A stretch of DNA of 64,000 nt from Eledone cirrhosa (taxonomy: Eukaryota). The notes under the pieces were generated by a model, which was not told the DNA's origin, ran no database searches, and saw only the letters and a list, made by a program, of their open reading frames with translations. The DNA lies in the NCBI GenBank assembly GCA_964016885.1, contig CAXHJY010000565.1:1-64000 (forward strand), given 5' to 3'. Positions 15,899-63,691 of the stretch are shown one piece after another. Both the position numbers and the translations under genes were made by a program. Position 1 is the first letter of the stretch. Each line of letters starts with the position of its first letter.

Positions 15899-16406
15899 CG
15901 ATTATGTACGGAAGAGAGAGCGTGCTTAATGATTCTCTCTTTGCGCATTTTCTCTCGATTCCTTATCCATATATCCCGTCTATCTTATAACTGTATATCT
16001 ATCAATTTGTAACTATCTATTAATCTGTGACTATCTATTGTCTATTTTATCTGTCTGGAAGACAGGAACACCTACAAAACGTACTTCTGGTGTTGGGGGT
16101 TGTTCTATCCACGGGGTGTAAAACAACCCCGTAGTAACGTTCCCCCTGTTGGGGATTTCGATTATTTTATTTTATTTTATATATAGTTTATTGTCATTAA
16201 TTATTGTTAAAGATTTTATGTAAAAACCCCGACGTTATGTCTTGTAATGTCCCAATTTTGTACGCCCTGGTGGCAAATAAAGAAATATATCTATAACTAT
16301 CTATCAATCTATAACTATACATTTAACCGTATTTTAAAAGTATTTTATCCGTATGTATAATTATACACACTTACATACATGCATGCATACATAAATACAT
16401 ACATAC

Positions 16407-16817
16407 ATGGTGGGTGCCAACTCGTTTTCGAGTACGGCCACTACTTTATATCCATGTAGGAGAACCCCTACCGATGCGCTGAACGAGTGTGACTTTTTAG
16501 TCAAGCCAGCGACTTGAAAACTCTGGTACAAACACTACACTTGTGACAATTATTGACACATAGTGTTGGGCCCATGGTACCATGTGACGACAAGTGCAGA
16601 GAGTTCTCCAGATATAAAGCAATGCCTGTGCCGTGAAGCTTTTATAGTGAGCAAAGGCACTGCACAAAGCCAGTCCCACTCTCTTAACCAAGATGATATT
16701 TACCAAAAAGAAGAACAAGTCAACATCATTGGATACCATCAGGGTTGCAGGTTATATCAGAGTTTTCCTTCTCCTAGAATTCTGCCTTGACAAAGGCTAA
16801 GGGTTCATCTCTCTCGG
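16407..16817 (-). mobile_element. Non-autonomous bipartite RTE derivative, 5'-truncated
   Basis: Matches 57943-58350. (ATGT)n tail, CTCGAAAACGAG stem-loop, zinc-finger remnant. Confidence 0.85.
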
Positions 16818-16857
16818 ATACATACATACATACATACATACATACATACATACATAC

Positions 16858-17214
16858 AATACAAATCTTGAGAAGCTGGGCTTCACAGGAACTGAAAGAA
16901 CACAACTAGTTAGGAAATTACAAGTACAATCCATTAATGGAACAGTAAAAATATGTAAAATATTCCAAATATTTTGCATCTAATAACTGTATATACACAT
17001 GTACAGATACAAAGCATATACACATGCACACATACAACTCAAAACATACACATCCACACATACAATAACATCCATACCTGCACATGCATGCAGACATGCA
17101 GACATATCTACCTAGTTGATGTTGTGTAAATTCCAATGAAAGTGTCTTGCGTCTATGTTAGAAACAGACTCTCTCTCTCTATTGGTAAACATTTGTGAAA
17201 TTATAAAACCAGAA
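16858..17214 (+). mobile_element. R4/Dong-like family B, 3' fragment
   Basis: Matches 27371-27718 (NTNLEKLGF...GTVKICK plus 3' UTR). (CATA)n on both sides. Confidence 0.9.
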
Positions 17215-17470
17215 CATATAATCCATACATACATACATACATACATACATACATACATACATGATGATGATGGCTTCCCCCTCGTTATCGAGTATGGCCA
17301 TTGCACGAGGAGGGAAAATATATATATATATTAATAAATAAATAAAAAATAAAATAAAATAAAAAAAAAGAAGTATATATATATATATATACACACACAT
17401 ACATATATACACACATATATATATACATACACACATATACATTAATAACAATAATAATAGTAATAATAAT

Positions 17471-18721
17471 GATTTCATTTATTAGCCACAAGGGCCGACA
17501 TGTGGGGACAATACAAAGACAGGGACAGTGGGGGTTTACAATAAGGTCGAGTAAAAGTGCACAATGGCAAGACTAATTTAACAATGAAAATATAAAAATA
17601 TAAAATAAACTATGCATAAATATAACAAAATAAATTCCCCGATAGGGGGTGGACGACCCTGGGGTGACTCGGGTACCCCACCAATCCTGAACGACCCTGC
17701 GCTTCTAGGGCACCCAGGGAGAGCACCCCTCTCCTCAAGTTAGCTAGCCTAGGTGCATGGTCAGAGTAGGCCCATTCACACGAGCCATTCTCGCCACATT
17801 CACCCACCTTTTAGCAAATGTACTGGGGGGCAGCACTTCTCTCCCCACCCTCACCTTCCTTTCCAGGTGAAACTTGAAGAAGTTGATGAGAGATTGGCCG
17901 AAGAGAAAAGTGTCTGTCTTCAGTCCTTTTAACCTGGTCCACCATATAACCTCTTTCGCAACTGCCACCAGACAGAGGAAAATTTCCTGCTCTTCCTGAC
18001 CTAAGGAAGGCGGTGGATCGATCTTCACTATGGACTCGGCCGATAGCCGGATTCGTTCCACACGCGACAGTAGCTGTTCGACATAACTCCACAAGTCAGT
18101 AATGCACGGACATTGGACAAGTGCGTGCAGAACGGTTTCGTCGTTCTGTGCGCATCTTGGGCAGGTCCGTCTGACAGCACTTCCGTGCCTGTAGAGTTTA
18201 TCTCGAACCGGCAGTGCCCCCCGGTAGCACTGCCAAGCGAGAGATTTCTGGAAATTGTCCATCGTCCCCGGCTCAAAAGTCCTCCGGTACAGACTGGTCA
18301 GTTCGTCGAGGCCCAAAGCTTCTCCGAGTGCGTCATCGCACTTGCCCACCACTAATCCTCTATAGAACTCGAGAGTGGAAGTTCCACTGATCGCATTGCC
18401 CGCTTGGTAGAGGGCAGTGAGTGCCTGGCAACATTCCAGATGCCAGTCACCCAGTCTCGGTCTCTTCTTGACCCAGGACTGCAGCTCAGTTAAAGAAATG
18501 AGCTGCGGAAAGGCCCGTCTGATAAACGGCGACCACACCTGTTCACCGTTGAGGCAGAATATCTGGAGATGTCTCAGCCTCAACGCATGTCTGCGCATCA
18601 TTAGCCACGGCATGCCCAGCCCTCCGCGTAGAGGGTGCTGCAGGCAGATGGACCGCCTCACCAACGGAACTTGTCCTCTCCACAAGATTTAGAAGAGGAG
18701 CCGTTCCAACGTGACGAGGCC
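17471..18721 (-). mobile_element. 5'-truncated Tx1/L1-clade retrotransposon
   Basis: ORF 17744-18685 with RGGLGMP and CPRC...ETVLHALVQC (zf-RVT-like). AATAAA then an (ATT)n tail. Absent from RTE copy 2. Confidence 0.9.
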
Positions 18722-18835
18722 AACAATAATAATAACGACAACAACAACAATAATAATATACATATACATATATATATATACACACACACACGCGCACACA
18801 TAAACATATCTATACACACACACACACGATAGCAA

Positions 18836-21800
18836 CTAACAGCGCTGCGATCGAATGTGGCTTTTTAGCCCAGCCAATGATCTAAAATGTCTTGCACAGA
18901 GTCGGCAACCAAAACATTCACTGGGAATAGCCGGCTGTGGTTGGAGTTCATGCACTTTTGCATGTCGCTTGAGCCCTCCTGCTGATTTACATTCTCTACC
19001 ACATGTTTGGCAAGCATGATGAGTAGTATCTCCAACAGCAGCCTGGTAGTCAACCACTGGTCTTACTTTATGACTGCGAAGATGACTTTCGAGTCCAGCT
19101 TTGCTTAGGCAGAGTCTCGCACAGACGTTGCAAGTCAGCACCATAGGAGGACCCTCGCCGTCTGGAAGTGCAACAGCAATGCCCTTCCTCACATCCCGCT
19201 TTACTTTCTCGTATGCGATTCGAGATGCCTCAAAAGCAACTTTTTCCTCATATACAGTCTTTCTCCATTTATAACGATCAGCAGCAATATTTTCCCATGT
19301 ATCAGCAGAGATGTTAGCGTCTTTCAAAGAGGCTTTCAAGGAATCCTTATACCTCTTTTTTGGTTTATGTGGCGGTCGTTTTCCTTTAACCAACTCTCCA
19401 TAAAAGAGTTGTTTTGGTATTCTAGAATCCTTCATCCTGGCAAGGTGACCACTCCAACGGAGTCGTTGCTTAAGCACAAGAGCTTCTATACTGTCACATC
19501 TAGAGCTTTCCAAAATCTCGACATCACTGATGTGGTCTCCCCCCAGTGAACGCCATGGATCCGTCTGAGACACATCTGATGGAAACGCTCCAATTGCTTA
19601 AGGTGGTGTCGATATGTGACCCAGGTCTCGCAGGCATAAAGAAGACAAGAGAGCACACATGCCTTGTACCTTTACCTTTGTCCTCCTGCATATGTCTCGC
19701 CGACCCCAGAGTCGCCTTTCTAGCTTTCCGAAAGCATCACTTGCTTTCCTAATCCTAAATGAGATTTCACTGTCAAGGTTGCTGTATCGATTGACAGTGC
19801 TTCCCAAGTAGACAAACTGATCAACCACTCCAAGTCGTTTACCATACACATAGATATTTGGTTCAGAGTACTGCTTACCAGGGGCAGGTTGGTACATGAC
19901 GACGGTTTTCTTGAGACTGACAGTCAATCCTAGGGCAGTGCAAGCGTCAGAAAATGCATTCAAAATGTGCTGCATATCACTCTCTGTGTGCGCTACAAGA
20001 TCGCAATCATCTTCATACAAGAGGTCTCTTATGATTGATGTAAATACTTTTGTCTTTGCGGCAAAGCGCCTGATGTTAAATATGCTGTCTGAGGTTCGAT
20101 ATCGGATGTAAACACCATGCTCGCAATTCCTGAATGCAATACAGAAAACCATTGCAAAGTATATGGCAAACAGGGTCGGTGCTGGAATATCCCCCTGTTT
20201 CACTCCATTTTTTACTGAGATAGGCTCCGACATGTTACCTCCGACATTAACCCAAGCCTTCATGTCGTCATGGAAAGACCTAACTAAAGCAAGGAACTTA
20301 TCAGGGCAACCAAGTTTCTGGAGAACCTTCCATAATGCATCTCTGTTAACAGTATCGAAAGCTTTTGTCAGATCGACAAAAACCTGATACAGATCCAAAC
20401 CTTGTTCCATGCACTTCTCCTGGGGCTGTCTAGCTGAGATCATATCAGTAGTGCCGCGTCCAGCACGAAAACCAGATTGACTTTCAGAGAGAACATAATC
20501 TGCATTGTGTGTCAGCAGACGGTCCAGAAGCACCCTACATAAAACTTTCCCTACGACAGAAAGCAATGATATAGCTCTATAGTTCCCACAATCATTCCTG
20601 TTACCCTTTCCCTTGTACAAGACCACCATTACTGCATCTCCCCAGTCCTCAGGTACAGATTCATTAGCCCATATCCTGCCAAACAAAGAGTGAAGATGTT
20701 GCAGGAGTCTCTCACCACCATATTGTAGGAGCTCAGCATGTATGCCATCCATACCTGGAGACCTTCCACTGTTCAGCTTCGAGATAGCCACTGCAACCTC
20801 CACAATCGTCGGAGGTTCTGCGAGAGCTACTTTCACAGGACTTTCTGGAATGAGATTGAGGAAATATTCACTGACGACAGACGGCTGATTCAAAAGATCA
20901 TCAAAGCGCTCTCGCCACCTTCGTAGAATTCCTTGTGAGTCACGAAGAAGTTCTTTGCCATCCTTGCTGCGAAGCGGTGTCACCAGAGAAGAAGACGGTT
21001 CATAAACCTCACGCAAGAGACTGTACAACAGCTTTGTGTTATTGGAATCTGACGCAGTTTGTATCTCACCAGCCTTCTCACTCCACCACTGATCCTTCAT
21101 CTGAGAAAGACTCCGCCTAACACGTGATTTTACATCCTTGAGTTCCTCATGCAACGTATTCCTCTCCTGTGGTTTTGCCGTCAAGTAGCGTGACAGAGCA
21201 CGCCTCTTATCAGCCAACAAGTCTTCTATATGTACATCATTCTCATTAAACCAGTCCTGATGTTTTCTCTGCACCAATCCCAGAACACGCCTGCCTACAT
21301 CATAAACCGACTTTTTAAGGGTCGGCCAATCCTCACCAAGATCTGTAGCCTGCATCTCTTCTTCCAATGTCCTCTTCACATTTTTATCCTTAAGACGAGC
21401 AGCATTCAATCTTTTGGGCAGGGCAACACCAGGAGCCCGGATTTTATGTTTAGTGGTTAGTTTCACTACTTGCGCGTACCAGGCGGTGGTCCGTCCAGCA
21501 CTCAGCTCCACGAAGAGCACGAACACACTGCACATCCTGTCTGTCACGCATCCTGACTAGGACGTAGTCCAAAAGATGCCATTCCTTAGATGCAGGATGC
21601 ATCCATGCGGTCTTGAATTTGTTCTTTTGTTGGAACATAGTGTTGGTAACACACAGATCCAGCTCCTCACGCATCTGCAGCAGAAGCATACCATTGTTGT
21701 TACACTTTCCCACCCCATGCCTTCCGATTACATTCCATGTGTTAAAATCCATACCCACTCTAGCATTAAAGTCACCAAGCACGATGACTTTGTCTGCCTG

Positions 21801-22361
21801 AGGGATATTTCTTAAAACACCTTTCAATGCATGGTAAAAGGACAGAATTCATAGTTGGAGCATACACACTCACCAGGGTCGCATATCTTCCTTTGTCCAG
21901 CGGAATTCTCATGGACATAAGACGCTCACTAATCCCTACTGGGAATTCTTCTAATTTATTCACAAGAACAGTCTTAACAGCAAATCCTACCCCAGCCTCT
22001 CTTCTGGTTCCTTCATCTCTTCCTTTCCAGAAGAATGTATATTCTCCACAAAATTCTGTAAGATGACCATCTCCAGCTAACCTCGTCTCAGATAAAGCCA
22101 CGATGTCAAGATCGTAACGTCGAAGCTCCTTTGCAACAAGAGCTGTCCTCATTCAGGACGCTCCAAGGAATCCCTGTCAAGCAACGTCCGTACGTTCCAG
22201 CAGCCAAGACTAAATGCCATGTTTGGCTCTACTACAATGGCACGATGACGAGCGGGCCCAGGCTGTGATAACCTGGGGCCCCTGCCCTTATTGCCAATGA
22301 TCTTTTTTGTTCCAGAACCTAAATTGCCAATTATCTCTTTTATATTGTTCTGAAACATCAT
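18836..22361 (-). pseudogene. Disrupted RTE ORF (APE endonuclease, RT, 3 C2H2 fingers)
   Basis: Pieces 22149-22361, 21772-22152, 21450-21827, 19598-21547 and 18836-19573. Stops, frameshifts and YADD>YEDD relative to copy 2. Confidence 0.95.
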
Positions 22362-22440
22362 TGAATTGGAAAAAAAATGACATACATACATACATACATA
22401 CATACATACATACATACATACATACATACATACATACATA

Positions 22441-25400
22441 AAATGGCAACCGTTGTGGTCAGTGTCCGATAATCGGACGTGTGTAATTACGGCTTACATG
22501 AAGGCAACATACCATATATTGGAAAAAGTTGAGCTACATTACGCAGTAAGATTACATACAATAATTCTACATAAGTGTTTGAACTGTAAGTGTGTTGTAA
22601 AACACCTATTTATATGAACGATACATACACTTATGATATATGAACGATACATACACTTTAACATATAAATGCAACGTTGTTATATTACATTTATAAAGAA
22701 ATATACAAGTAACGTTTTCGATTCAGAAACAAAAATATAAGTGTTTGAACTGTGAATATGTTGTGAATAGGTTGTAGAACACCTATTTATATGAATGATA
22801 CATAAACTTTAACATATAAATACAGCGTTGTTATATTATATTACATTCATAAAGGAATATACTAAGTAACGGTTCTTTTTGTTCTCGATTCAAACGATTC
22901 AAGAGCAACGTTTAAAACACAGTTGTAGAATTAAAAACTAACTGAAAAGAAATATTACTCAAGCTGTGAATAACTTTAAATTTGATTCTGACAGAACTTT
23001 GTCGTAACTTTTAAAGAAGATCATCGACTATTTTGAAAAATAAATACGAAATATTAGTGAATAGACGAACTCATCATGGCAAAAAGTACAAGTCTCCTTC
23101 GACCAAATCGCAATTACAACCGTTGTACACAGTGGAGCTACGAGCTTAACAAAGTATTATATGAAGCATACAAACAATCTGAACCCCAAAAGTTCGGTTT
23201 TATGCAAAGGCTAAAAACTTTATGGAACTCCAAACACCCAGAATTAGACTTTTCTCCAAAGCATTTAAATGAACAGGCAAAACGTATCATTAGATGTAAA
23301 TTATACATCTAACGGAATCGAGTGATACTACAAATACAGCCCTTGTAGACAACCACCCCACCTCCACTGACAGACAAAGAGAATGGCCAGCTAAATCTAA
23401 CAGTGAACAGCTCACCAACAATTTTGCTGAAATTCATCCCACTTCCACTGAAGAACAGCGAGAAAGGTCAGCTGACTCTAGTAGTAATTGTCACCACATC
23501 AACAACGAGGCTGAAATTCATGACTCTACTGAACAAACAGAGCACCAAAAACTTGTGGGCTCCCTACAAGTGATATGGAATGATATGTTTCAAGAGATAC
23601 ACAGCCTTAATGTGAGTGACAGACCATACAACACTAGAGTCAGTAAAGAACCCACTAAATTGGAATTGGAAGCGGTGAACGAAATAGCTGGCAATTATCT
23701 GAAGGCTATACGATCTAAAGGTATAGAAACGACATTTGAAACGCTTAATGTTTTGTTATATGTTTCAGCTGTCACATTGCTATCATATAACACACATCTA
23801 AAACCACGCAATCAAGATACAAACAGAAAGCCTGAACCAGCGTGGATGCGAAATTTAAAAACCAAAATTTTGTCCCTGAGACGAAGTATCTCACACATCG
23901 CAGTCGTTATGAAATGCAACATAGAGAGAAACTTCACACGACACCAGGAAGACCTAAAGAAAAAGTTAGAGAGAAGATTTGGAGATACAAAATTTAAAAC
24001 TTTGAACTCCAAATTACACCAGTTGAAACAACAACTCACAGCTACAACAGAAAGACTAAAATATAAGTCAACAGCACAAAAACGACAAGTGCTAAATAGA
24101 TTGTTTGCCAGAGATCCTAAATCAGTTTATCGCAGCTTCGGTGGCAAAAGCTCAATCTCTGTAAATGACACCCCTTCAAAAGAACAGGTTGAGAGCTACT
24201 GGAGATCTGTATGGGAAACGGATGACGGGTTCAACAGACAAGCTAATTGGCTAAAAGAACTGGAACAGGACTACTGCCAACATGTCCAGACAAAACAATA
24301 TGACATAGATGGGTCAATACTGGAAACAGCTCTACAGAAAATGTCGAATAGGAAATCGCCAGGCCCAGACCTCATTACAGGATACTGGTTGAAGAATTTC
24401 ACTTTCTATCGGCAAGATCTCATACGGCTGTTTACAGAAACCATTAAGGGCACACAAGAACTGCCCAGATGGTTATCAACTGCCTCTACTCTCCTCATTC
24501 CCAAAAATAGCCAAACCACCCTTGCTAAAAATTACCGCCCAATTGCCTGCCAAAACATCATGTATAAATTATATACTGGGTGCCTTAACCTGTTCTTACA
24601 GGATCACTGTGCTACCAACAACATCATAACACTTGAGCAAGCTGGTGGAAAGGGGGAGGTGTGGGGTTGCATAGATCACCTACTAACTAACAAAATGATT
24701 CAGGAAAAAACAACAAAGAATCGCAGAAACATGACTGTCGTGTGGCTGGACTATCAAAAAGCATTTGATAGTGTACCTCATGGGTGGATTGTTAAGGCTT
24801 TACAGTTAGCTAAAGTCCCACAACCATTGGTAGCTGCTGTTGAACGCCTGACCAAGAACTGGTACACCAGTTTGATCCTTAGAGGTGAGAAGGAGCAGGT
24901 TAAGACTGATAAGATACATTACCAGAAGGGCATCTTTCAGGGTGATAGCTTGTCAGTGCTACTCTTCGTTCTCTCACTGAATCCACTATCTTACCTACTC
25001 AGGAAATAAGGTGGACAAAGAAGTGGGACCAGAAGTATCTCCCATCTTTTCTTTGTTGATGACCTGAAGTTGTATGGGCCAAATATCAATGACATCAAGA
25101 AACAATTGGACCTCATTACACAATTTTCAACCGACATCAAAATGAAATTTGGTGAGTCCAAGTGTGCATATTTGGCAGTAAAACGTGGAAGAGCTGTGCC
25201 CTCCTCTAGAAATCTAGAGATGAACGGCCTGACAATACAACCTCTGCAGTCAGGTGACAACTACAGATATCTTGGACAGGATGAGAATGTCAGATATGAT
25301 GGACCCATAAATAAGGAGAGAACCAGAACTGAATACCTCAGAAGAGTAAAGAAAATATGGTCATCAGAACTGTCAGCATACAACAAATACATTGCCTACA

Positions 25401-26665
25401 ATACTTATGCTGTGCCAATTCTAACGCCAACATTTGGCCTACTGAACTGGTCATTGCAAGAACTAAGTGAGATGGATGTTAGAACTCGAAAACTTCTCAG
25501 TGTTACTGGGAACTTTAACATCAATGGTGATGTGGATAGGCTATACTTCTCACGCAAGGAAGGTGGCCGGGGTCTAAAATCAATATTAACAACATATGAG
25601 ACCCGGATAGTGACACTGAAGCAACACCTTCAACAGAGGAAAAAGGTTGGCAACCATCTTGCCCAGGTTTATGACCATGAAAAAAGAAATATCATTAGAA
25701 TAGCGACTGATCTGGAGGAGAGATATGGAATAAAGCCTGATATAAATCTCTCACTCAGAGAAATCGGAAGATCCTATTCAATGTTCAAACAAGATAAAAA
25801 AATTGACCAATTTACAGAAAAAGTTGTGCATGGATACTTGAGGCGTAAAACACAGACCATAGAGGGGATAAACCACTCAAAAAGCCTGGCATGGAGTTCC
25901 GACAAGTTTATGACATCACACCTTGAGGGATATCTCTATGCAATACAGGAACAAGAACTCCCTACCAAATATCTGCTGCACAAAAGAGGAGGGCCAGCAG
26001 CTGACAATAAATGTAGGCTATGTAAAACAAAGATCGAGGATGTAAGCCACATTGTTGCCAGCTGCGAAAGAATGTCATCTCGCTACTACCTCCCCATGAG
26101 ACACGATGGGATAGCTAGAACCATCTGGAACGCACTTCGGAAAACAAAATTAACAACAAACGAGGAAGAATATATTGAGACAGATGGCACTAAGGAATAC
26201 TGGTGGAACCTGAAAATAAAAACTGCCACCAAATTAAAGCACAACCGGCCTGATATTGTAGTTTGGGACCACACATTGAAAACGTGTTCTGTTGTGGAGA
26301 TCAGCTGCCCACTTGATGTAAACGTTGTCAGAAAAATACAGGAGAAGGAGGACATCTACGGACCATTGATGAGGAGTTTACAAATCCAGTATCCAAGATA
26401 CACCTTTAGCTTCATACCCATCATTATTGGTGCTACGGGTTATATACCAACCCGCTTGGACCAAAGTATGACTGAACTTGGATTTGCGGACAAAAAGCGC
26501 AGCTCCCTAATTCATAGTCTACAAATGGCTGCGATAGCTGGCACCTTCAAAATTTACAAAACATTCTTGCGATTCAAGGGATGACAATTTCTTTTCTTTT
26601 ACAACCTTGACACCAGGAAGGTGGCCGGTCAAAAAAATATACTCGAAATTAAGAGAAAGAGAAAA
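22441..26665 (+). mobile_element. Near-full-length R4/Dong-clade non-LTR retrotransposon (family A) in (CATA)n
   Basis: R4-type N-terminus (W..ELN...GFMQRLKTLW), RT (NYRPIAC, DYQKAFDS, QGDSLS, FVDD), CCHC knuckle CRLC...HIVASC, REL nuclease RHD...RPDIV...EISCP. Pure (CATA)n flanks. Confidence 0.93.
23076..26584 (+). pseudogene. R4-like RT-REL ORF with one frameshift (~23300-23310) and one in-frame TAA (25007-25009)
   Basis: ORFs 23555-25009 and 25070-26584 share a frame that is open back to ~23300. ORF 23076-23312 is in another frame. Confidence 0.9.
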
Positions 26666-26707
26666 CATACATACATACATACATACATACATACATACAT
26701 ACATACA

Positions 26708-26737
<30 letters not shown>

Positions 26738-26738
<1 letters not shown>

Positions 26739-27718
26739 GTAATATAGATAAGGAAAGTAGTCTAACTTGGACCAACAACCGCTATATTGGCTCCCACTTT
26801 GAAGGATACGCTTTTGCAATCCAAGAACAGGAGATTAACACGAAATACCTGATTCACAAAAGAGATAGGGATGCAGGCAAAACACCTAGATGTGATAACA
26901 AGTGCAGACTCTGCAGAACTAACATCGAGGATATCACCCATGTCATCAGCAGCTGTCCAAAGATGTCATCGCGGTACTATCTACCTATGAGGCATGATGT
27001 AGTGGCCAAAACACTGTACAATGCAGTTCGTAAAAAAGATAGCCCTGATAATAAACACATTAAAAGCTACAACAATGTGGAAGACATCCATGTACATAAT
27101 ATGAAAGAGTACTGGTGGAATGTTCCAGTAAAAACCCCAATAAAATGCAAGCATAACAGACCAGATATTATGATATGGGACAGGGAGAAGAAAACATGCA
27201 CAGTAGTGGAAATTAGCTGCCTAGCAGATGCCAATATAATGTCAAAGATTAGTGAAAAGGATAGTATTTATGCAGAACTGATGAGAAATCTGCAGATACT
27301 TCACCCTGATTACACCTTCAGATTTATGCCTGTGATTATTGAGGCACTTGGGTATGTTAGTAACTGCCTCAATACAAATCTTGAGAAGCTAGGCTTCACA
27401 GGAACAGAAAGAACACAACTAGTTAGGAAATTACAAGTACAATCCATTAATGGAACAGTAAAAATATGTAAATCATTCCAGAAATTTTGCATCTAATAAC
27501 TGCATGTACAGATGCAAAGCATATACACATGCACACATACAACTCAAAACATACACATCCACACATACAATAACATCCATATCTACACATGCATGCATAC
27601 ATACATATCTACCTAGTTGATGTTGTGTAAATTCCAATGAGAGAGTCTTGTGTCTATGTTAGAAACCGACTCTCTCTCTCTATTGGTAAAACTTTGTGAA
27701 ATTATAAAACCAGATGAA
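26738..27718 (+). mobile_element. R4/Dong-like family B, 5'-truncated (REL domain and 3' UTR)
   Basis: AIQEQEI, CRLC...HVISSC, RHD and NRPDIMIWD...EISC in ORF 26621-27496. Diverged from family A. Confidence 0.92.
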
Positions 27719-27731
27719 CATACATACATAC

Positions 27732-28164
27732 ATACTCCACCCTGATTATACCTTCAGATTTATGCCTGTGATTATTGGGGCACTGGGATATGTTAGTAAC
27801 TGCCTCAATACAAATCTTGAGAAGCTGGGCTTCACAGGAACAGAAAGAACACAACTAGTTGGGTAATTACAAGTACAATCCATTAATGGAACAGTAAAAA
27901 TATGTAAAACATTCCAAAACTTTTGCTTCTAATAACTGCATATACACATGTACAGACACTAAGCATATAAACATGCACACATACAACTCAAAACATACAC
28001 ATCCACACATACAATAACATCCATATCTACACATGCATGCAGACATGCAGACATATCTACCTAGTTGATGTTGTGTAAATTCCAATGAGAGAGTCTTGTG
28101 TCTATATTAGAAACAGACTCTCTCTCTATTGGCAAAAATTTGTGAAATTATAAAACCAGAAGAA
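27732..28164 (+). mobile_element. R4/Dong-like family B, short 3' fragment
   Basis: Matches 27297-27718. (CATA)n on both sides. Confidence 0.9.
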
Positions 28165-28221
28165 CATACATACATACATACATACATACATACATACATA
28201 CATACATACATACATACATAC

Positions 28222-28624
28222 ATGGTGGCTGCCAACTCGTTTTCGAATACGGCCACTACTTTATATCCATGTAGGAGAACCGCTACCGATGCGCTGAACG
28301 AGTGTGACTTTTTAGTCCAGCCAGCGACTTGAAAACTCTGGTACAAACACTACATTTGTGACAATTATTGACACATAGTGCTGGGCCCATGGTACCATGT
28401 GACGACAAGTGCAGAGAGATCTCCAGATATAAAGTAATGCCTGTGCCGTGAAGCTTTTATAGTGAGCAAAGGCACTGCACAAAGCCAGTCCCACTCTCTT
28501 AACCAAGATGATATTTACCAAAAAGAAGAACAAGTCAACATCATTGGTAACCACCAGAGTTGCAGGTTTTATATCACAGTTTTCCCTCTCCTAGAATTCT
28601 GCCTTGACAAAGGCTAAGGGGTCA
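28222..28624 (-). mobile_element. Non-autonomous bipartite RTE derivative, 5'-truncated
   Basis: Matches 57943-58345. Confidence 0.87.
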
Positions 28625-28789
28625 TACATACATACATATACGGATAAATAGATAATTATACGCACGTACGTAGGTATGTATGGATGGATGATTCCGTGAC
28701 TCCTGGGGGTGGGGGGTCGTATGGACGCCGTATTGACAGCAGATTTCTTCCAGAGAAGGATAGAGGGAGGAAATGACAAAGAAATTGAG

Positions 28790-32434: not shown

Positions 32435-32810
32435 ATGATGATGGCTGCCCACTCGTTATCGAGTATGGCCATTATACGATGAAAAAAAATAATAATAACA
32501 ATAATAATAATAATTGTTTCTACTTTTGACACAAGGCCAGCAAGTACCCAGTGCATTACTGGTACTTTATTTTATCTATCTCGTAGGGATGAAAGGCAAA
32601 GTTAACCTCTGCAGGACTTGAGCTCAGATCAGAAAGGGGTGTAACTCTGTGCTGCAAAGCGTGTTGTCCGACCCTCTGCCGATACTGGCAGTATCGGTAT
32701 ATAATAATAACAACAATAATAATAGCAACAATAATAATATACACACATATATATATACACACAAACACACGATAGCAACTAGCATCGCTCAGATCGAATG
32801 TGGCCTTTTA
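32435..32810 (-). mobile_element. Very short RTE 3' fragment with a SINE A (32511-32690, -) nested in its (AAT)n
   Basis: CTCGTTATCGAGTATGGCC terminus and CGATAGCAACTA...GATCGAATGTGGC (ORF end) as in both RTE copies. (CATA)n flank. Confidence 0.85.
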
Positions 32811-33397: not shown

Positions 33398-34257
<860 letters not shown>

Positions 34258-34809
34258 CGGCGATGAATTAGTTTTGTGAGGTTTTTTATATGAAATCGTG
34301 TGTCGAAACAAATATTGTTATACTTGGGGAGGGTCATATTTGTGTAATATTGCGAGAATTAATAACAGAACACACTCACTGTTTGGTTGGTTTTCGCTTC
34401 TCGCTTCTGTGTCTTTTATATCGGTAATCTAACTTACTCGGTCCTCAATGTTGCCATTGACTGACCGACGGTCAAAAATAATACACATACAATATAGACA
34501 CAAACACATATATATATATAGTTTATCATAAATCTTTCGTTGTACATCTGCAACATCGTCAGTGGTGCTATCTTTTCCTCCTGTTGTATTGTATGTCTAC
34601 GCCATTTTTATTCAGTCTGTCTATATATTTATTTATTTATTTGCTTGTTTGTTTATTTTATTTTGTCTTCTTTGCGCATGCGTTTGCGTGTGTGTATAGT
34701 GTTTTGTTTGCTGTGTGATGGGTGACTAGTGTGTGTTTATGTGCTTGTTGTTATTGTGCTTGTGTATGTATTTATTTATTTATTTATTTATTTTATTTTA
34801 TTTACTTAT

Positions 34810-36203: not shown

Positions 36204-36535
36204 AATTAGAAGACCAAGACTAAACAGAAAGAATGAATGGAATAACAACAACACCCAAACAAACAACACTGACCTAAGAGAAGTATAAATAAGTAAATAA
36301 AATAAAATAAATAAATAAATAAATAAATAAATACATACACAAGCACAATAACAACAAGCACATAAACACACACTAGTCACCCATCACACAGCAAACAAAA
36401 CACTATACACACACGAAAACGCATGCGCAAAGAAGACAAAATAAAATAAACAAACAAGCAAATAAATAAATAAATATATAGACAGACTGAATAAAAATGG
36501 CGTAGACATACAATACAACAGGAGGAAAAGATAGC

Positions 36536-36577
36536 ACCACTGACGATGTTGCAGATGTACAACGAAAGATTTATGAT
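36536..36577 (+). ncRNA. Minimal hammerhead motif in the pLTR (mirror copy ~34526-34566, -)
   Basis: CTGACGA T GTTG..CAAC GAAA GATT TA. Stem I is weak. Confidence 0.55.
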
Positions 36578-36780
36578 AAACTATATATATATGTGTTTGT
36601 GTCTATATTGTATGTGTATTATTTTTGACCGTCGGTCAGTCAATGGCAACATTGAGGACCGAGTAAGTTAGATTACCGATATAAAAGACACAGAAGCGAG
36701 AAGCGAAAACCAACCAAACAGTGAGTGTGTTCTGTTATTAATTCTCGCAATATTACACAAATATGACCCTCCCCAAGTAT

Positions 36781-36952
<172 letters not shown>

Positions 36953-44833: not shown

Positions 44834-44886
<53 letters not shown>

Positions 44887-44892
<6 letters not shown>

Positions 44893-48426: not shown

Positions 48427-48486
<60 letters not shown>

Positions 48487-50962: not shown

Positions 50963-51028
<66 letters not shown>

Positions 51029-51029
51029 T

Positions 51030-51070
<41 letters not shown>

Positions 51071-53183: not shown

Positions 53184-53218
<35 letters not shown>

Positions 53219-55907: not shown

Positions 55908-56013
55908 GCAAGGGATGATCGACTATACAAGGGACGAACAAAATATCTTCTTTACAACCCTGCCACCGGGAATATGGTCGGTCTAAGATAAACTGAAAAT
56001 TATGAGACAAAAT
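55908..56013 (+). mobile_element. 3' tip of a third R4-like subfamily
   Basis: CAAGGGA..A..TCTTCTTTACAACCCTGCCACCGGGAATATGGTCGGTC resembles 26575-26665. It lies in a CATA-rich tract. Confidence 0.65.
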
Positions 56014-56137
56014 ATATATACATACGTACATAGATACAAACATATATACATACATGCATACATACATACATACATACATACATACATACATACATACATA
56101 CATACATACATACATACATACATACATACATACATAC

Positions 56138-56743
56138 ATGGTGGCTGCCAACTCGTTTTCGAGTACGGCCACTACTTTATATCCATGTAGAACCCCTACC
56201 GGTGCGCTGAACGAGTGTGGCTTTTTAGTCCAGCCAGCGACTTGAAAACTCTGGTACAAACACTACACTTGTGACAATTATTGACACATAGTGCTGGGCC
56301 CATGGTACCCTGTGACGACAAGTGCAGAGAGATCTCCAGATATAAAACAATGCCTGTTCCGTGAAGCTTTTATAGTGAGCAAAGGCACTGCACAAAGCCA
56401 GTCCCACTCTCTTAACCAAGATGATATTTACCAAAAAGAAGAACATGTCAACATCATTGGATACCATCAGAGTTGCAGGTGTTATATCAGAGTTTTCCTT
56501 CTCCTAGAATTCTGCCCTGACAAAGGCTAAGGGGTCATCTCTCCCGGTGATTTTGGATGGCCATTGACTCTTAAGTGCTCCTTTGCCCTTTGACAGGTTT
56601 TGTTTTTAGTCCTGCAGGATGTCCAAAGTCACCCTCCTCACCAAGAAACCTTGGTGGGGTTGCCAGTTTAGTCGCCAACGACCCGACCATGAGACAGGTT
56701 GTACTGGGATACATGTTACCAGTTGCACCAACTGGTGACCTGA
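56138..56743 (-). mobile_element. Non-autonomous bipartite RTE derivative, full length (~605 bp)
   Basis: Same 5' end TCAGGTCACCAG as 57943-58550. (ATGT)n tail. Confidence 0.9.
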
Positions 56744-56819
56744 CATGCAAAAAAAAAATACATACATACATACATACATACATACATACATACATACATA
56801 CATACATACATACATACTT

Positions 56820-57861
56820 GGGGTCTAAAATCCATATTAACAACATATGAGACCCGGATAGTAACACTGAAGCAACACCTTCAACAGAGGAAAAGGGTTG
56901 GCAACCATCTTGCTCAGGTTTATGAGCATGAAAAAAAAAATATCATTAGAATAGCGACTGATCTGGAGGAGAGATATGGAATAAAGCCTGATATAAATCT
57001 CTCACCCAGATAAATCGGAAGATCCTATTCAATGTTCAAACAAGATGAAAAAATTGACCAATTTACAGAAAAAGTTGTGCATGGATACTTGAGACGTAAA
57101 ACACAGACCGTAGAAGGGATAAACCACTCAAAAAGCCTGGCATGGAGTTCCGACAAGTTTATGACATCACACCTTGAGGGATATCTCTATGCAATACAGG
57201 AACAAGAACTCCCTACCAAATATCTGCTGCACAAAAGGGGAGGGCCAGCAGCTGACAATAAATGTAGGCTATGTAAAACAAAGATCGAGGATGTAAGCCA
57301 CATTGTTGCCAGCTGCGAAAGAATGTCATCTCGCTACTACCTCCCATGAGACACGATGGGATAGCTAGAACCATCTGGAAAGCATTTCGGAAAACAAAAT
57401 TAACAACGAATGAGGAAGAATATATTGAGACAGATGGCACTAAAGAATACTGGTGGAACCTGAAAATAAAAACTGCCACCAAATTAAAGCACAACCGGCC
57501 TGATATTGTTGTTTGAGACCACACATTGAAAACGTGTTCTGTTGTGGAGATCAGCTGCCCACTTGAGGTAAACGTTGTCAGAAAAATACAGGAGAAAGAG
57601 GACATCTACGGACCATTGATGAGGAGTTTACAAATCCAGTATCCAAGATACACCTTTAGCTTCATACCCATCATTATTGGTGCTACGGGTTATATACCAA
57701 CCCGCTTGGACCAAAGTATGACTGAACTTGGATTTGGCACCGTCAAAATTTGCAAAACATTCTTGCGATTCAAGGGATGACAATTTCTTTTCTTTTACAA
57801 CCTTACCACCAGGAAGGTGGCCGGTCAAAAAAATATACTCGAAATTAAGAGAAAGAGATAA
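56820..57861 (+). mobile_element. R4/Dong-like family A, 5'-truncated copy
   Basis: Near-identical to 25569-26665, with stops and a deletion. (CATA)n flanks. Confidence 0.95.
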
Positions 57862-57942: not shown

Positions 57943-58550
57943 ATGGTGGCTGCCAACTCGTTTTCGAGTACGGCCACTACTTTATATCCATGTAGGAGAA
58001 CCCTTACCGATGCGCTGAACGAGTGTGACTTTTTAGTCCAGCCAGCGACTTGAAAACTCTGGTACAAACACTACACTTGTGACAATTATTGACACATAGT
58101 GCTGGGCCCATGGTACCATGTGAGGACAAGTGCAGAGAGATCTCCAGATATAAAACCATGCCTGTGCCGTTAAGCTTTTATAGTGAGCAAAGGCACTGCA
58201 CAAAGCCAGTCCCACTCTCTTAACCAAGATGATATTTACCAAAAAGAAGAACAAGTCAACATCATTGGATACCATCAGGGTTGCAGGTGTTATATCAGTG
58301 TTTTCCTTCTCCTAGAATTCTGCCTTGACAAAGGCTAAGGAGTCATCTCTCCCGGTGATTTTGGATGGCCATTGACTCTTAAGAGCTCTTTGCCCTTTGA
58401 CAGGTTTTGTTTTTAGTCCTGCAGGATGTCCAAAGTCACCCTCCTCACCAAGAAACCTTGGTGGGGTTGCCAGTTTAGTCGCCAACGACCCGACCATGAG
58501 ACAGGTTGTACTGGGATACATGTTACCAGTAGCACCAACTGGTGACCTGA
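57943..58550 (-). mobile_element. Non-autonomous bipartite RTE derivative, full length
   Basis: RTE-like 5' UTR joined to a C2H2 remnant (CSVCTRVFKSLAGLKSHTRSAHR*) and the RTE 3' stem-loop. Confidence 0.9.
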
Positions 58551-58667: not shown

Positions 58668-58733
58668 ATGATGGCTGCCCCCTCGTTATCGAGTATGGCC
58701 ATTGCACAATAAAAAAAAAAAAAAAAAAAAAAA

Positions 58734-58787
<54 letters not shown>

Positions 58788-58812
58788 AAAAAAAAAAAAA
58801 AAAAGGGAAAAG

Positions 58813-58845
<33 letters not shown>

Positions 58846-58967
58846 TATACACATATATATATATACACATATATATACACACACACATACATACACATAC
58901 ATACATATATACACACACACATACATACACATACACTCACACATATATACACACATACATTAATAAC

Positions 58968-59007
<40 letters not shown>

Positions 59008-59086
59008 GCAATAATAATAATAACGACAACAACAATAATAATATACATATTCATATATATATACACACACACGCACGCACATAAGC

Positions 59087-59124
<38 letters not shown>

Positions 59125-62100
59125 GATAGCAACTAACAGTGCTGCGATCGAATGTGGCTTTTTAGCCCAGCCAATGATCTAAAATGTCTTGCACAGAGTC
59201 GGCAACCAAAACATTTACTGGGAATAGTCGGCTGTGGTTGGAGTTCGTGTACTTTTGCATGTCGCTTGAGTCCTCCTGCTGATTTACATTCTCTACCACA
59301 TGTTTGGCAAGCATGATGAGTAGCATCTCCAACAGCAGCCTGGTAGTCAACCACTGGTCTTACTTTATGACTGCGAAGATGACTTTCGAGTCCAGCTTTG
59401 CTTAGGCAGAGTCTCGCACAGACGCTGCATGTCAGAAACATAGGAGGACCCTCGCCGTCTGGAAGTGCAACAGCAATACCCTTCCTCACGTCCCGCCTTA
59501 CTTTCTCGTGTGCGATTCGAGATGCCTCAAAGGCAACTTTTCCCTCATATACAGTCTTTCTCCATTTACTACGATCAGCAGCAATATTTTCCCATGTATC
59601 AGCAGAGATGTTAGCGTCTCTCAGAGAGGCCTTCAAGGAATCCTTATACCTCTTTTTTGGTTTATGTGGCGGTCGTTTTCCTTTAACCAACTCTCCATAG
59701 AAGAGTTGTTTTGGTATTCTAGAATCCTTCATCCTGGCAAGGTGACCACTCCAACGGAGTCGCTGCTTAAGCACAAGAGCTTCTATACTGTCACACATAG
59801 AGCTTTCCAAAATCTCGACATCACTGATGTGGTCCCTCCAGTGAACGCCATGTATCCGTCTGAGACACATCTGATGGAAACGCTCCAATTGCTTAAGGTG
59901 GCGTCAATATGTGACCCAGGTCTCGCAGGCATAAAGAAGACAAGAGAGTACACATGCCCTGTACACCCTTACCTTTGTCCTCCTGCATATGTCTCGCCGA
60001 CCCCAGAGTCGCCTTTCTAGCTTTCCGAAAGCATCACTTGCTTTCCTAATCCTAAGTGAGATTTCACTGTCAAGGTTGCCGTATCGATTGACAGTGCTTC
60101 CCAGGTAGACAAACTGATCAACCACTCCAAGTCGTTTGCCATACACATAGATGTTTGGTTCAGTGTACTGCCTACCAGGTGCAGGTTGGTACATGACGAC
60201 GGTTTTCTTGAGACTGACAGTCAAACCCAGGGCAGTGCAAGCGTCAGAAAATACATTCAAAATGTGCTGCATATCACTCTCTGTGTGCGCTACAAGATCG
60301 CAATCATCTGCATACAAGAGGTCTCTTATGACTGATGTAAATACTTTTGTCTTCGCAGCAAAGCGCCTGATGTTAAATATGCTGCCTGAGGTTCGATATC
60401 GGATGTAAACACCATGCTCGCAATTCCTGAATGCAACACAGAAAACCATTGCAAAGTATATGGCAAACAGGGTCGGTGCTGGAATATCCCCCTGTTTCAC
60501 TCCATTTTTTACTGAGATAGGCTCCGACATGTTACCTCCGACATTAACCCAAGCCTTCATGTCGTCATGGAAAGACCTAACTAAAGCAAGGAACCTATCA
60601 GGGCAACCAAGTTTCTGGAGAACCTTCCATAATGCATCTCTGTTGACAGTATCGAAAGCCTTTGTCAGATCGACAAAAACCTGATACAGATCCAAGCCCT
60701 GTTCAATGCACTTCTCCTGGAGCTGTCTAGCTGAGAAGATCATATCAGTAGTGCCGCGTCCAACACGAAAACCAGATTGACTTTCAGGAAGGACACAATC
60801 TGCAATGTGTGTCAGCAGACGGTCCAGAAGCACCCTACATAAAACTTTCCCCACGACAGAAAGCAATGATATACCTCTGTAGTTCCCACAATCATTCCTG
60901 TTACCCTTTCCCTTGTACAAGACCACCATTACTGCATCTCTCCAGTCCTCAGGCACGGATTCATTAGCCCATATCCTTCCAAACAGAGAGTGAAGATGTT
61001 GCAGGAGTCTCTCACCACCATATTGCAGGAGCTCAGCATGTATGCCATCCATACCTGGAGATCTTCCACTGTTCAGCTTCGAAATAGCCACTGCAACCTC
61101 CACAAGTGTCGGAGGTTCTGCGAGAGCTACTTTCACAGGACTTTCCGGAATGAGATTGAGGAAATCTTCACTGACGACAGACGGCTGACTCAAAAGATCA
61201 TCAAAGTGCTCTCGCCACCTTCGTAGAATTCCCTGTGAGTCACGAAGAAGCTCTTTGCCATCCCTGCTGCGAATCGGTGTCACCAGAGAAGAAGACGGTC
61301 CATAAACCTCACGCAAGAGACTGTACAACAGCTTTGTGTTATTGCAATCAGACGCAGTTTGTATCTCACCAGCCTTCTCACTCCACCACTGATCCTTCAT
61401 CTGAGAAAGACTCCGCCTAACACGTGATTTTACATCCCTCAGCTCCTCATGCAACGTATTCCTCTCCTGTGGTTTTGCCGTCAAGTAGCGTGACAGAGCG
61501 CGCCTCTTATCAGCCAACAAGTCATCTATATGCACATCTTTCTCATTAAACCAGTCCTGATGCTTTCTCTGCACCAATCCCAGAACACGTCTGCCTACAT
61601 CATAAACCGACTTTTTAAGGGTCGGCCAATCCTCACCAAGATCTGCAGCCTGCATCTCTTCTTCCAATGTCCTCTTCACATTTTTATCCTTAAGACGAGC
61701 AGCATTCAATCTTTTGGGCAGGGTAACACCAGGAGCCCGGATTTTACGTTTGGTGATTAGATTCACTTTTGCGCGTACCAGGCGGTGGTCCGTCCAGCAC
61801 TCAGCTCCACGAAGAACACGAACACACTGCACATCCTGTCTGTCACGCATCCTGACTAGGACGTAGTCCAAAAGATGCCATTCCTTAGATGCAGGATGCA
61901 TCCATGTGGTCTTGAATTTGTTCTTTTGTTGGAACATGGTGTTGGTAACACACAGATCCAGCTCCTCACACATCTGCAGCAAGAGCATACCATTGCTGTT
62001 ACACTTTCCCACCCCATGCCTTCCGATTACATTCCATGTGTTAAAATCCCTACCCACTCTAGCATTAAAGTCACCAAGCACGATGACTTTGTCTGCCTGA

Positions 62101-62686
62101 GGGATATTTCTTAAAACACCTTTCAAGGCATGGTAAAAGGACAGTTTTTCTTCATCGACAGAATTCATAGTTGGAGCATACACACCCACCAGGGTAGCAT
62201 ATCTTCCCTTGTCCAGCGGAACTCTCATGGACATAAGACGCTCACTAATCCCCACTGGGAATTCTTCTAATTTATTCACCAGTACAGTCTTAACAGCAAA
62301 TCCTACCCCAGCCTCTCTTCTGGTTCCTTCATCTCTTCCTTTCCAGAAGAATGTATATTCTCCACAAAATTCCGTAAGATGACCATCTCCAGCTAACCTC
62401 GTCTCAGACAAAGCCACGATGTCAAGATCGTAACGTCGAAGCTCCCTCGCAACAAGAGCGGTCCTTCGTTCAGGACGCTCCAAAGAATCCCTGTCAAGCA
62501 GCGTCCGTACGTTCCAGCAGCCAAGACTAAATGCCCTGTTTGGCTCTATTACAATGGCACGATGACGGGCGGGCCCAGGTTGTGATAACTTGGGGCCCCT
62601 GCCCTTATTGCCAATGATCCTTTTTGTTCCAGAACCCAAATTGGCAATTATCTCGTTTACATTGTTCTGGAACATCATTGAATTGG

Positions 62687-62724
<38 letters not shown>

Positions 62725-62729
62725 TAATA

Positions 62730-62764
<35 letters not shown>

Positions 62765-63067
62765 ACACTATTAATAATTATTAATGCACTCGTGCAATGC
62801 CTGTGCGTGACGAATATTTTTAAAGTGAGGAAAGACTGTGCACTGAACCAATCCCACTCTCTGAGCGACAGTAGCTATAACCCGAAAAGAAGAAAAGATC
62901 AACATCATCGGTAACTACTGAGCCGCAGGTTTTATATCGGAGTTAACCCAGTTTCCTGAGATGCCTTCTCCTAGAAGAATACCCTGACATGGGCTAGGGG
63001 TTCTTCACTCCCAGTGGTTTAACTGCGCGATCGGGCATCCAGCCCGATTATTTCTATGTCCCCGCGC
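58668..63067 (-). mobile_element. RTE-clade LINE, copy 2, including much of the 5' UTR
   Basis: 924-aa and 251-aa in-frame ORFs. The 5' UTR (62790-63067) is homologous to the non-autonomous derivatives. (CATA)n flanks. Confidence 0.97.
59133..62678 (-). CDS. RTE polyprotein (APE, RT with YADD, 3 C2H2 fingers), ~1181 aa, one in-frame TGA at 59904-59906
   Basis: The two ORFs are in the same frame. Copy 1 has CGA at the stop position. Confidence 0.93.
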
Positions 63068-63139
63068 AAAAAAAAAAAAAAAAAAATACACATACATACA
63101 TACATACATACATACATACATACATACGTACGTACATAC

Positions 63140-63681
63140 ATGGCATTACATGATAATGCAACTTGATTTCGAGTAATGCCATCGCTTGATACTTAAGCAT
63201 AAGCATCACGGGCGCGGCATTTGAATGATGCTAGGGACCTGCCAATGGCCAGCAATACCATGCATCGCAAAAATTATCACATATCAAGCGATACCCATGC
63301 TTGACGTTTTTTTAAGTGAGGAAATGGTTTGCACGGGGCCAATCCCACTCTCTGTACATTAAATGCATTTGCCCAAAAAGAAGAACTGGTCTACATCATT
63401 GGATGCAAATGAAGTCGCAGGTTTTATATTAGAATGACCTTCTCCTTGAGTGATGTCTTAATGAAAACTAGGAGTCTCTCGCTCCACAGAAAAAACCTTT
63501 ATTGGATGGCCGTTGACTTCCCTGGGTTCCTCCACCCTTTCACAGGTTTTACTGTTCATCCCGCAGTATGTCCAAAATCACCCTCCTCAACAAGCAAGCT
63601 TGGTGGGGTTGCCGGTTTAGTCGCCGACAACCCGACCATGCACAAGTTGTACTGGGTTACATGTTACCAGTAGCGACCTGA
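63140..63681 (-). mobile_element. Second, diverged family of non-autonomous RTE derivative
   Basis: 5' TCAGGTCGCTACTGGTAACATG..., RTE-type 5' UTR motifs, 3' CTCGAAATCAAG stem-loop, ATGT tail. Confidence 0.8.
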
Positions 63682-63691
63682 CGTACATACA

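Follow-up and report, generated by a model that had tools for sequence, protein, structure and literature searches.

The window, the whole 64,000-nucleotide stretch of Eledone cirrhosa DNA that was analysed, contains a stack of seven retrotransposon pieces within positions 16409-28622, each flanked by a plus-strand (CATA)n run. The pure (CATA)n runs around the seven pieces are 14, 41, 39, 61, 73, 18, 60 and 16 bp long. Three pieces are RTE-type and lie on the minus strand, and four are R4-type and lie on the plus strand; the clade names R4/Dong and RTE were assigned by architecture and flanks.

The left boundary of the stack is an imperfect (CATA)n array (16363..16408), which like all arrays and spacers named below reads on the plus strand. 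It is followed by a 5'-truncated copy of family A (16409..16817, minus strand; 95-96% identity to the copies at 28224, 56140 and 57945), a 41 bp spacer (16818..16858), a 3' fragment of R4 family B consisting of the ORF end and the 3' UTR (16859..17223, plus strand; 94-95% identity to 27377-27714) and a 39 bp spacer (17224..17262). Next is an RTE-type LINE with an (ATC)n tail and a truncated 5' UTR (17263..22379, minus strand; 95.4% identity to 59125-62686). Its single ORF for APE, RT and C2H2 fingers is split into four open stretches, with Pfam matches to RVT_1 (8.6e-30), Exo_endo_phos and zf-C2H2. A fragment of about 1.25 kb from another LINE, which we take to be L1/Tx1-like, lies nested within the (AAT)n of this element's 3' UTR and outside the CATA rule (17470..18721, minus strand; zf-RVT, E 4.8e-9), and is missing from the second RTE copy.

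Beyond a 61 bp spacer (22380..22440) lies a near full-length, 4.2 kb copy of R4 family C (22441..26664, plus strand) with an N-terminal helical motif, RT, a CCHC finger and an RPD...E nuclease motif, the ORF of which is broken twice, near 23310 by a frameshift and near 25007 by a stop. A 73 bp spacer (26665..26737) separates it from a 5'-truncated family B copy containing the CCHC and nuclease region and the 3' UTR (26738..27717, plus strand), which aligns to the family C C-terminus. An 18 bp spacer (27718..27735), a shorter family B 3' fragment (27736..28163, plus strand; 93.6% identity to 27296-27514), a 60 bp spacer (28164..28223) and a 5'-truncated family A copy similar to the others in the window (28224..28622, minus strand) complete the stack. 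The right boundary is (CATA)4 (28623..28638), the 5' flank of the last family A copy, which has no R4 neighbour on that side.

A first-pass annotation had described a stack of seven insertions separated only by (CATA)n. The stack was borne out, with coordinates accurate to within 1-4 bases, and all junctions between pieces are indeed (CATA)n; the wording applies to the junctions alone since the eighth, nested insertion sits in (AAT)n. Of the pieces it called RTE-family, those at 16409 and 28224 are not LINE bodies: both belong to family A, a non-coding derivative of RTE 605 bp in length, and are truncated.

The strand rule, which had also been proposed for an element at 32435 and six at 55908-63681, holds at 32437 and at 55908-63683, so that it applies to all 14 elements in the window. 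The first of these is an RTE fragment of 3' UTR only (32437..32808, minus strand) between (AT)n/CATA and (CATA)n, with mostly (AT)n on its 3' side and a SINE inside its (AAT)n. The six others are the 3' end of a third R4 subfamily, the likeness of which to the family C 3' UTR was judged by eye (55908..56015, plus strand); two full-length family A copies (56140..56746 and 57945..58549, both minus strand); a 5'-truncated family C copy with an internal deletion (56818..57860, plus strand; 97.5% identity to 25569-26486); an RTE-type LINE with a 5' UTR and its ORF in two open stretches (58670..63087, minus strand; RVT_1 2e-30, Exo_endo_phos 7.1e-12); and A2, a second short RTE-type derivative with 74% identity to the 5' part of family A (63142..63683, minus strand).

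The CATA-bounded stack is far beyond chance, since in 579.8 kb sampled from arbitrary places in the genome ACATACATACAT occurs at a frequency of only 7.3e-5 per position, and a control SINE had none of its 106 examined ends near a CATA run.

Orientation across the genome

The genome is about 3 billion bases in size and contains thousands of copies from two unrelated LINE clades inside (CATA)n. Using pattern searches of the contigs, we found 7,419 family A 3' ends on the strand expected from the rule and 3 reversed, and about 2,965 versus 17 for the 5' ends, both counts containing a few places listed twice. At 148 CATA spacers, 294 of the 296 element ends obeyed the rule. The opposite placement of the two clades on (CATA)n holds genome-wide at both 5' and 3' ends. 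The three reversed family A copies carry the reversed repeat at the 3' and 5' ends alike. On all contigs sampled, the CATA insertions are interstitial.

Most of the flanks sampled lie within 70 Mb of the start of contig C1, and with many copies sharing a stack they are not independent. Unbiased tallies exclude the loci chosen for reversed orientation (L141-143 and L183-197), family B copies that exceed the reference in length, low-identity matches and copies close to the edge of a locus.

RTE-type elements and their derivatives

The RTE-type LINE has a single ORF with APE and RT and no ORF1, and its homologues are 860-1200 aa long with the common domains PF03372 and PF00078; the N-terminal motif of the ORF is presumably like that of RTE/Bov-B. 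The 3' end has no poly(A) but a short tandem-repeat tail, made of 1-3 units of ATC (40 of 42 RTE 3' ends) or of ACC units. Family A is bipartite and lacks a long ORF: in alignments to the RTE it consists of an RTE-like 5' UTR joined to the C2H2-coding end of the ORF and a 3' hairpin. No exact autonomous parent was found for it. One short non-coding RTE derivative has at least 27,585 genome copies. An Rfam scan of 55800-64000, a segment with no R4 5' end, gave only sub-threshold repeat matches and no ribozyme where the RTE-type elements have their 5' ends.

Among the first 100 RTE 3' ends listed, 24 were flanked by pure CATA and about 15 by pure (AT)n. Relative to background, CATA was enriched about 3,300-fold and (AT)6 about 13-fold. 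RTE elements target (YA)n, of which (AT)n is one form, and strongly prefer CATA. The 5'/3' flank classes of 151 derivative copies were CATA/CATA in 40, CATA/AT in 3, AT/CATA in 0 and AT/AT in 9, the remaining 99 having a mixed class on one or both sides, and the classes matched between the two ends (p 6e-8).

In 101 copies of family A, 97-99% of the junctions begin with AT. The six informative target duplications are 10-18 bp long (median 13), and all six begin with AT preceded by T, so that the nick falls in the C-rich strand, at TpA; the TA of the RTE Tn-TA insertion signature is likewise present in all six. Mean duplication length in 28 copies was 10.4 for true flank pairs versus 4.9 for shuffled ones. 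For R4, only 4 of 65 duplications were informative, with lengths of 17-34, and the nick phase was derived from these four and the junction pattern. Together, the junctions suggest that both enzymes may nick one TpA step on opposite strands.

R4/Dong-type elements

There are at least 4,655 and at least 5,897 genome copies of two R4/Dong-type families. The window ORFs match RVT_1 and zf-RVT without Exo_endo_phos, and contain RT together with CxxC..H..xxC and RPD...VEI, which we take to be the CCHC finger and restriction-like nuclease motifs, and no APE. The structures most similar to the predicted fold of a natural homologue (59% identity) are those of R2 retrotransposon proteins (E 7e-37). Window positions 23061-23309 match the N-terminus of homologues (hhalign 99.3%) and were modelled as three helices, with no C2H2 motif seen in this segment of family C, which makes it a candidate counterpart of the Myb/SANT-like domain that R4/Dong proteins have in place of zinc fingers at the N-terminus. 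A PDB sequence search with the C-terminal half gave no match. No RNA source is listed for family C, and no unbroken ORF was present in the window R4 copies or in five other copies with the exact family C 5' end.

The sense strand of R4 is the CATA strand, also at varying 5' truncation points. Among the matches listed, CATA was found within 17 nt downstream of the 3' end in 94 of 100 for family C and 98 of 100 for family B. Upstream of 63 breaks in 5'-side alignments of family C we found CATA in 47, TATG in 1 and other sequences in 15, several of the latter being internal deletions or nested elements. All six copies with the exact family C 5' end, including the one at 22441, have CATA upstream. 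R4 is thus nearly CATA-specific: insertion is site-specific and into a microsatellite, which is (CATA)n and not the (TAA)n of Dong in the strict sense.

One protein query also finds relatives flanked by TAA. At the 26 of 80 metagenome loci where flanks of relatives were inspected, distant relatives had (TAA)n, as in Dong, and two closer ones had (CTTA)n. In a quick tree built from 25 of the loci, the R4 families and the two (CTTA)n-flanked relatives clustered apart from the TAA-flanked ones (SH-aLRT 100).

Origin of the strand rule

Both flanks of the insertions are target DNA and orientation is tied to the strand of the repeat. That two unrelated non-LTR groups sit in opposite orientations in (CATA)n is likely (probability roughly 0.7) because their differing nucleases nick opposite strands of the repeat. 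The R4/Dong-type REL nuclease would nick the TATG strand and the RTE-type APE nuclease the CATA strand, and each nick would prime reverse transcription. The palindromic TpA step may be the cut site common to APE and REL, and the AU of the RTE RNA tail could base-pair with the AT primer end. Family A would be mobilised by borrowed RTE protein.

Strand choice of the RTE group could instead come from pairing between RNA and primer, in which case APE would need only TpA, and read-through (AUGU)n or (AU)n in the RNA would pair with the nicked CATA or AT strand. The RTE 3' end, a short hairpin plus a tail of 1-3 units, fits this explanation, as does the pairing between RNA 3' end and target proposed for RTE in a passage of PMC6007223, which also reports that such pairing is needed for or aids priming in I factor, R1Bm and R2Ol. 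It would account for a strict bias in an enzyme clade said to be weakly site-preferring (excerpt of PMC13295347). However, a CATA 3' flank was found in none of the 14 copies with a pure AT 5' flank, so that read-through units are not copied in, and a variant that apparently tracked the target class was lost on splitting by sampling. This variant, at site 428, had suggested target subfamilies in family A (permutation p 0.003), which disappeared in the two parts of the split (p 0.74 and 0.18). We consider RNA guidance a possible but rather unlikely alternative to the choice of strand by the nucleases.

The first-pass annotation had RTE elements ending in (ATGT)n, so that their tails would make the arrays that R4 then uses. 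In support, the tract of 21 of 30 long CATA arrays also contains an RTE or R4 end, and microsatellites derived from RTE tails are described for Lepidoptera in part of PMC2887409. However, the tail borne by the element is ATC or ACC and the flank is duplicated target. Furthermore, the 5' and 3' flank classes agree, many copies lie between two (AT)n runs, the repeat is reversed at both ends of the three reversed copies, and loci L018 and L019 are insertions in non-repeat sites without ATGT. At the DNA level this origin is largely refuted, and we regard it as improbable.

Passive accumulation, in which random insertions survive better in microsatellite-rich DNA of low constraint, would suit a genome in which (AT)n and compound repeats are very common and has been proposed near CA repeats for Drosophila Waldo (passage of PMC3812793), but it is refuted by the strand and phase counts, since survival is unable to yield a strand bias of 2,500 to 1 or a fixed junction phase, and the control SINE does not share the association. 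An assembly artefact is similarly far-fetched: the window begins a small unplaced contig of 188,633 bp and spanning reads were checked at other loci only, but comparable stacks with differing members and orders are present on the chromosome-scale contig C1, and raw reads from another study cross joints of two derivatives through (CATA)n as well as the joint of an R4 truncation with CATA.

Growth of the arrays

The abundance of the tetranucleotide, which the stacks had been thought to help explain, is not especially high, with (ACAT)n making up 0.065% of the sampled bases versus 3.45% for (AT)n. The idea of self-amplification fared better, in that it is consistent with the target duplications and the association of elements with long arrays; regrowth was deduced from spacer lengths (median 41 bp), and no empty allele was seen. 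Each insertion would divide and partly duplicate an array, the pieces of which may extend by slippage into fresh targets, and stacks would grow as a result.

The lengths of 5' and 3' CATA runs did not differ significantly in family C (36 versus 28, p 0.15), which gives no sign of repeat synthesis at insertion, or in family B (p 0.58). A weak asymmetry in family A (p 0.039; 33 versus 14 in full-length and 18 versus 22 in truncated copies) was not relied on. We tentatively suggest, at somewhat less than even odds, that a (CWTA)n-specific R4 sublineage and RTE elements converging via APE on the opposite strand, as a third microsatellite-targeting APE clade, jointly make and keep most long (CATA)n arrays as a shared, self-renewing niche.

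The two clades offer a natural pairing of APE with REL, nucleases of unrelated origin, on opposite strands of one four-base repeat, and junctions by the tens of thousands to work from. This makes it testable whether RTE target choice is set by the enzyme or the RNA tail, and how specificity changed among R4 proteins for TAA, CTTA and CATA. It also bears on retrotransposons as drivers of long-microsatellite growth. In practice, CATA markers in this genome will often abut repeated flanks, and repeat annotation will fuse RTE and R4 elements in stacks.

Comparison with known systems

A literature search outside Repbase found neither a CATA target for Dong/R4 nor strand-specific microsatellite targeting by RTE. 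Octopus genomes contain many RTE and Dong-R4 LINEs, with recent activity in both clades (sections of PMC13282606, PMC9115989 and PMC8967140), and both clades are abundant here as well; these sections give no target sequence, and the word "target" had 0 matches in the available text of PMC13282606.

The R4 families resemble Dong, DongAg, DongBg and the ostracod Dong in having a single ORF with RT and a REL-type nuclease, in the modelled N-terminal helical motif and in microsatellite insertion with the repeat on both sides. The Dong target in most insects, molluscs and cnidarians is (TAA)n (parts of PMC7998251 and PMC3812793), whereas it is the tetranucleotide (CATA)n here.

RTE/Bov-B elements have a single APE-RT ORF, a short repeat tail and duplications that begin with A after T, and Bov-A, RTESINE and WALLSI3 are derivatives that join RTE 5' and 3' ends (passages of PMC5786205, PMC6007223 and PMC13295347). 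All these features are common to the RTE group here. The known preference is for a T stretch plus TA, as compared to (YA)n with strict strand choice in this genome. The only site-specific APE clades named in the portion consulted of the RTE paper cited are Tx1 and R1.

A parallel in layout is that of silkworm TRAS and SART, two families that insert in opposite orientations in one simple repeat and form arrays (excerpt of PMC10088271), as do the two groups in (CATA)n. However, TRAS and SART both belong to the R1 clade and lie in telomeric repeats, whereas the elements here differ in architecture, one group having APE and the other REL, and are found at tens of thousands of sites of one interstitial microsatellite.

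Orientation of elements in the window

The stack at 16409-28622 consists of seven element pieces, each bordered by plus strand (CATA)n runs, with three RTE-type pieces on the minus strand and four R4-type pieces on the plus strand. This orientation, which the first-pass annotation had put forward as a clade-specific rule, is repeated at 32437 and in six elements at 55908-63683, and holds for 14 of 14 elements in the window, which covers 64 kb from the start of a 188,633-bp contig in a 2.996-Gb genome. An eighth piece (17470-18721) sits inside the (AAT)n of an RTE 3' UTR and lies outside the CATA rule; this fragment of a LINE has a zf-RVT domain and may represent another clade that targets AAT.

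The long RTE-type elements (17263-22379 and 58670-63087, both on the minus strand) are 95.4% identical to each other and have one ORF encoding an APE nuclease, a reverse transcriptase (RT) and C2H2 fingers, which is broken in both window copies. The 605-bp non-coding family A aligns to the RTE 5' UTR, the C2H2-coding end of the ORF and the 3' hairpin, the anatomy of the bipartite RTE derivatives described in the part of PMC5786205 covered. Another derivative, about 360 bp long, joins the initial 300 bp of the window's RTE to its final 50 bp and is present at many loci under the same flank rule (L102, L103, L113, L118, L120 and others). The plus strand elements fall mainly into two R4/Dong-type families: family C (22441-26664, plus strand) lacks an APE but has an RT followed by a CCHC finger and an RPD...E motif, and family B aligns to the C-terminus of family C. 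A natural homologue (1,158 aa, 59% identical) gave a confident structure model (pLDDT 84.6), and the best PDB matches of this predicted fold were R2 retrotransposon proteins (E 7e-37).

Elsewhere in the window, inverted repeats of about 290 bp, 95% identical, surround ORFs with a weak RT match (34257-36788) and recur as a second inverted pair at 44885-45494. A large near-perfect inverted duplication of a trinucleotide-rich region (arms 98-100% identical) spans 47957-51546, and a low-complexity tandem region at 52789-55302 has long open frames on both strands with a Thr/Asn-rich reading.

Genome-wide flanks

R4/Dong-type and RTE-type elements share (CATA)n as a target, each in its own orientation, and this strand-specific co-targeting is real and genome-wide. 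Exact end motifs, which give lower bounds for copy numbers, located in the whole genome at least 27,585 3' ends and 8,858 5' ends of family A, at least 6,309 RTE-type 3' ends, at least 5,897 3' ends of family B, and at least 4,655 3' and 6 5' ends of family C. At the family A 3' end, the direct neighbour was ACATACATACAT in 7,419 matches and the reversed repeat in 3; (CATA)3 adjoined the 5' end at 2,965 places versus 17 for (TATG)3, with a few places counted twice. CATA occurred within 17 nt of the R4 3' end in 94/100 and 98/100 among the matches listed for families C and B, respectively. The sequence before the 5' alignment break of 63 family C copies was CATA in 47, TATG in 1 and other in 15, several of the last being internal deletions or nested elements. 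The loci examined are stack-enriched and chiefly from one chromosome-scale contig (C1); their 148 distinct CATA spacers border 296 element ends, of which 294 obey the rule. None of 106 ends of a control SINE was near CATA. Joints of two family A copies across (CATA)n, and a CATA-R4 truncation, are spanned by raw reads of another study. In contigs labelled as two other organisms, CATA borders an R4 truncation and a family A-like 5' end.

The single family C copy whose 5' side carries (TATG)n (L052) has a 5' flank that repeats its 3' flank in inverted form, as after a local inversion. The same unrelated element end occurs at two different positions within family C bodies, outside CATA (L207 and L208).

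The repeat as target DNA

The first-pass annotation had the RTE elements themselves end in (ATGT)n. Their own tails are instead 1-3 ATC units (40/42 ends), with ACC as the family A terminus, and the bases just after the tail are AT in 93-99%. Beyond the family A 3' end, the flank was pure CATA in 24 of the first 100 matches and pure (AT)n in about 15, with mixed or other sequence in the rest. The 5'/3' flank classes of family A agree (CATA/CATA 40, CATA/AT 3, AT/CATA 0, AT/AT 9; p 6e-8; 99/151 copies of mixed class left out), the reversed repeat flanks all three reversed copies on both sides, and duplications average 10.4 in true flank pairs versus 4.9 in shuffled ones (28 copies); the flanking repeat is therefore target DNA. 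In 58 arbitrarily placed 10-kb stretches, ACATACATACAT occupies 7.3e-5 of positions and (AT)6 1.17e-2, which gives a computed use over background availability of about 3,300-fold for CATA and 13-fold for (AT)6.

Array abundance and growth

The tetranucleotide whose abundance a self-amplifying system was to help explain is not abundant: (ACAT)n makes up 0.065% of sampled bases and ranks eighth by number of arrays; in a random sample, most CATA runs of 14-25 bp had no adjoining element. Self-amplification itself has partial support. Long arrays, of 34 bp or more, were read by eye: of the first 30, several of them within one stack, 15 had the end of an RTE-type or R4 element within 40 nt and 21 within 190 nt, all rule-oriented. 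The median CATA spacer is 41 bp versus duplications of about 13 bp. R4 5' junctions showed no clear repeat excess. Pure CATA sums to 322 bp over the window's stack and the longest pure run among the 30 arrays is 112 bp; a net repeat gain following insertion is therefore likely.

Probable nick sites

Target-primed reverse transcription begins with a nick in the strand that pairs with the 3' flank of the element. The RTE-type elements would thus nick the CATA strand first and the R4-type elements the TATG strand. Because the six informative RTE-side duplications (10-18 bp) start with AT and are preceded by T, the RTE nick is probably at TpA, which fits the TA part of the RTE signature in the covered parts of PMC6007223 and PMC13295347. 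For R4, the evidence on nick phase comprises the junction A|ACATA and one clean 18-bp duplication (L033), and from these sequences we infer a nick at GT^AT, which would be the same palindromic TpA step, give or take one base. RTE strand choice may be set by APE or, alternatively, by pairing of read-through RNA. An apparent signal of donor-linked target classes was lost once copies were stratified.

Relatives and known systems

We inspected 26 of 80 metagenome loci with R4 relatives. Distant relatives are flanked by (TAA)n, at both ends in L303, L309 and L320, and two loci have (CTTA)n at one flank each (L294, 3', 4651-4694; L295, 5', 1-43). A quick tree places both CATA families together with the CTTA pair in a single 18-row group (SH-aLRT 100) that excludes the TAA-flanked rows, and this grouping suggests a tetranucleotide-targeting R4 sublineage. 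The contig of L351, a distant REL-type element on a long branch, terminates, on the 3' side, in a putative 3' end of 18S rDNA. Two REL-type relatives have (ACA)n runs past the ORF, possibly a further target or tail (L337:3284-3370, L370:6324-6347).

In the covered parts of the respective sources, (TAA)n is the target of Dong elements (PMC3812793, PMC7998251), most REL clades are target-specific (PMC4640811), R4/Dong elements have self-cleaving 5' ends (PMC3774820) and RTE tails give rise to microsatellites in moth genomes (PMC2887409). RTE and Dong-R4 elements are abundant and recent in octopus, with no targets given in the parts covered (PMC13282606, PMC9115989, PMC8967140). No report of a CATA target was found in the literature searched, which comprised abstracts and main texts; the repeat library of PMC13282606 could bear on novelty. 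(CATA)n is a new target variant for Dong-type elements, and targeting by the RTE-type lineage here is unusually strict. TRAS and SART, both of the R1 clade, insert in opposite orientations in common telomeric repeats (PMC10088271, part covered); the CATA co-targeting pair works like TRAS/SART but does not belong to it.
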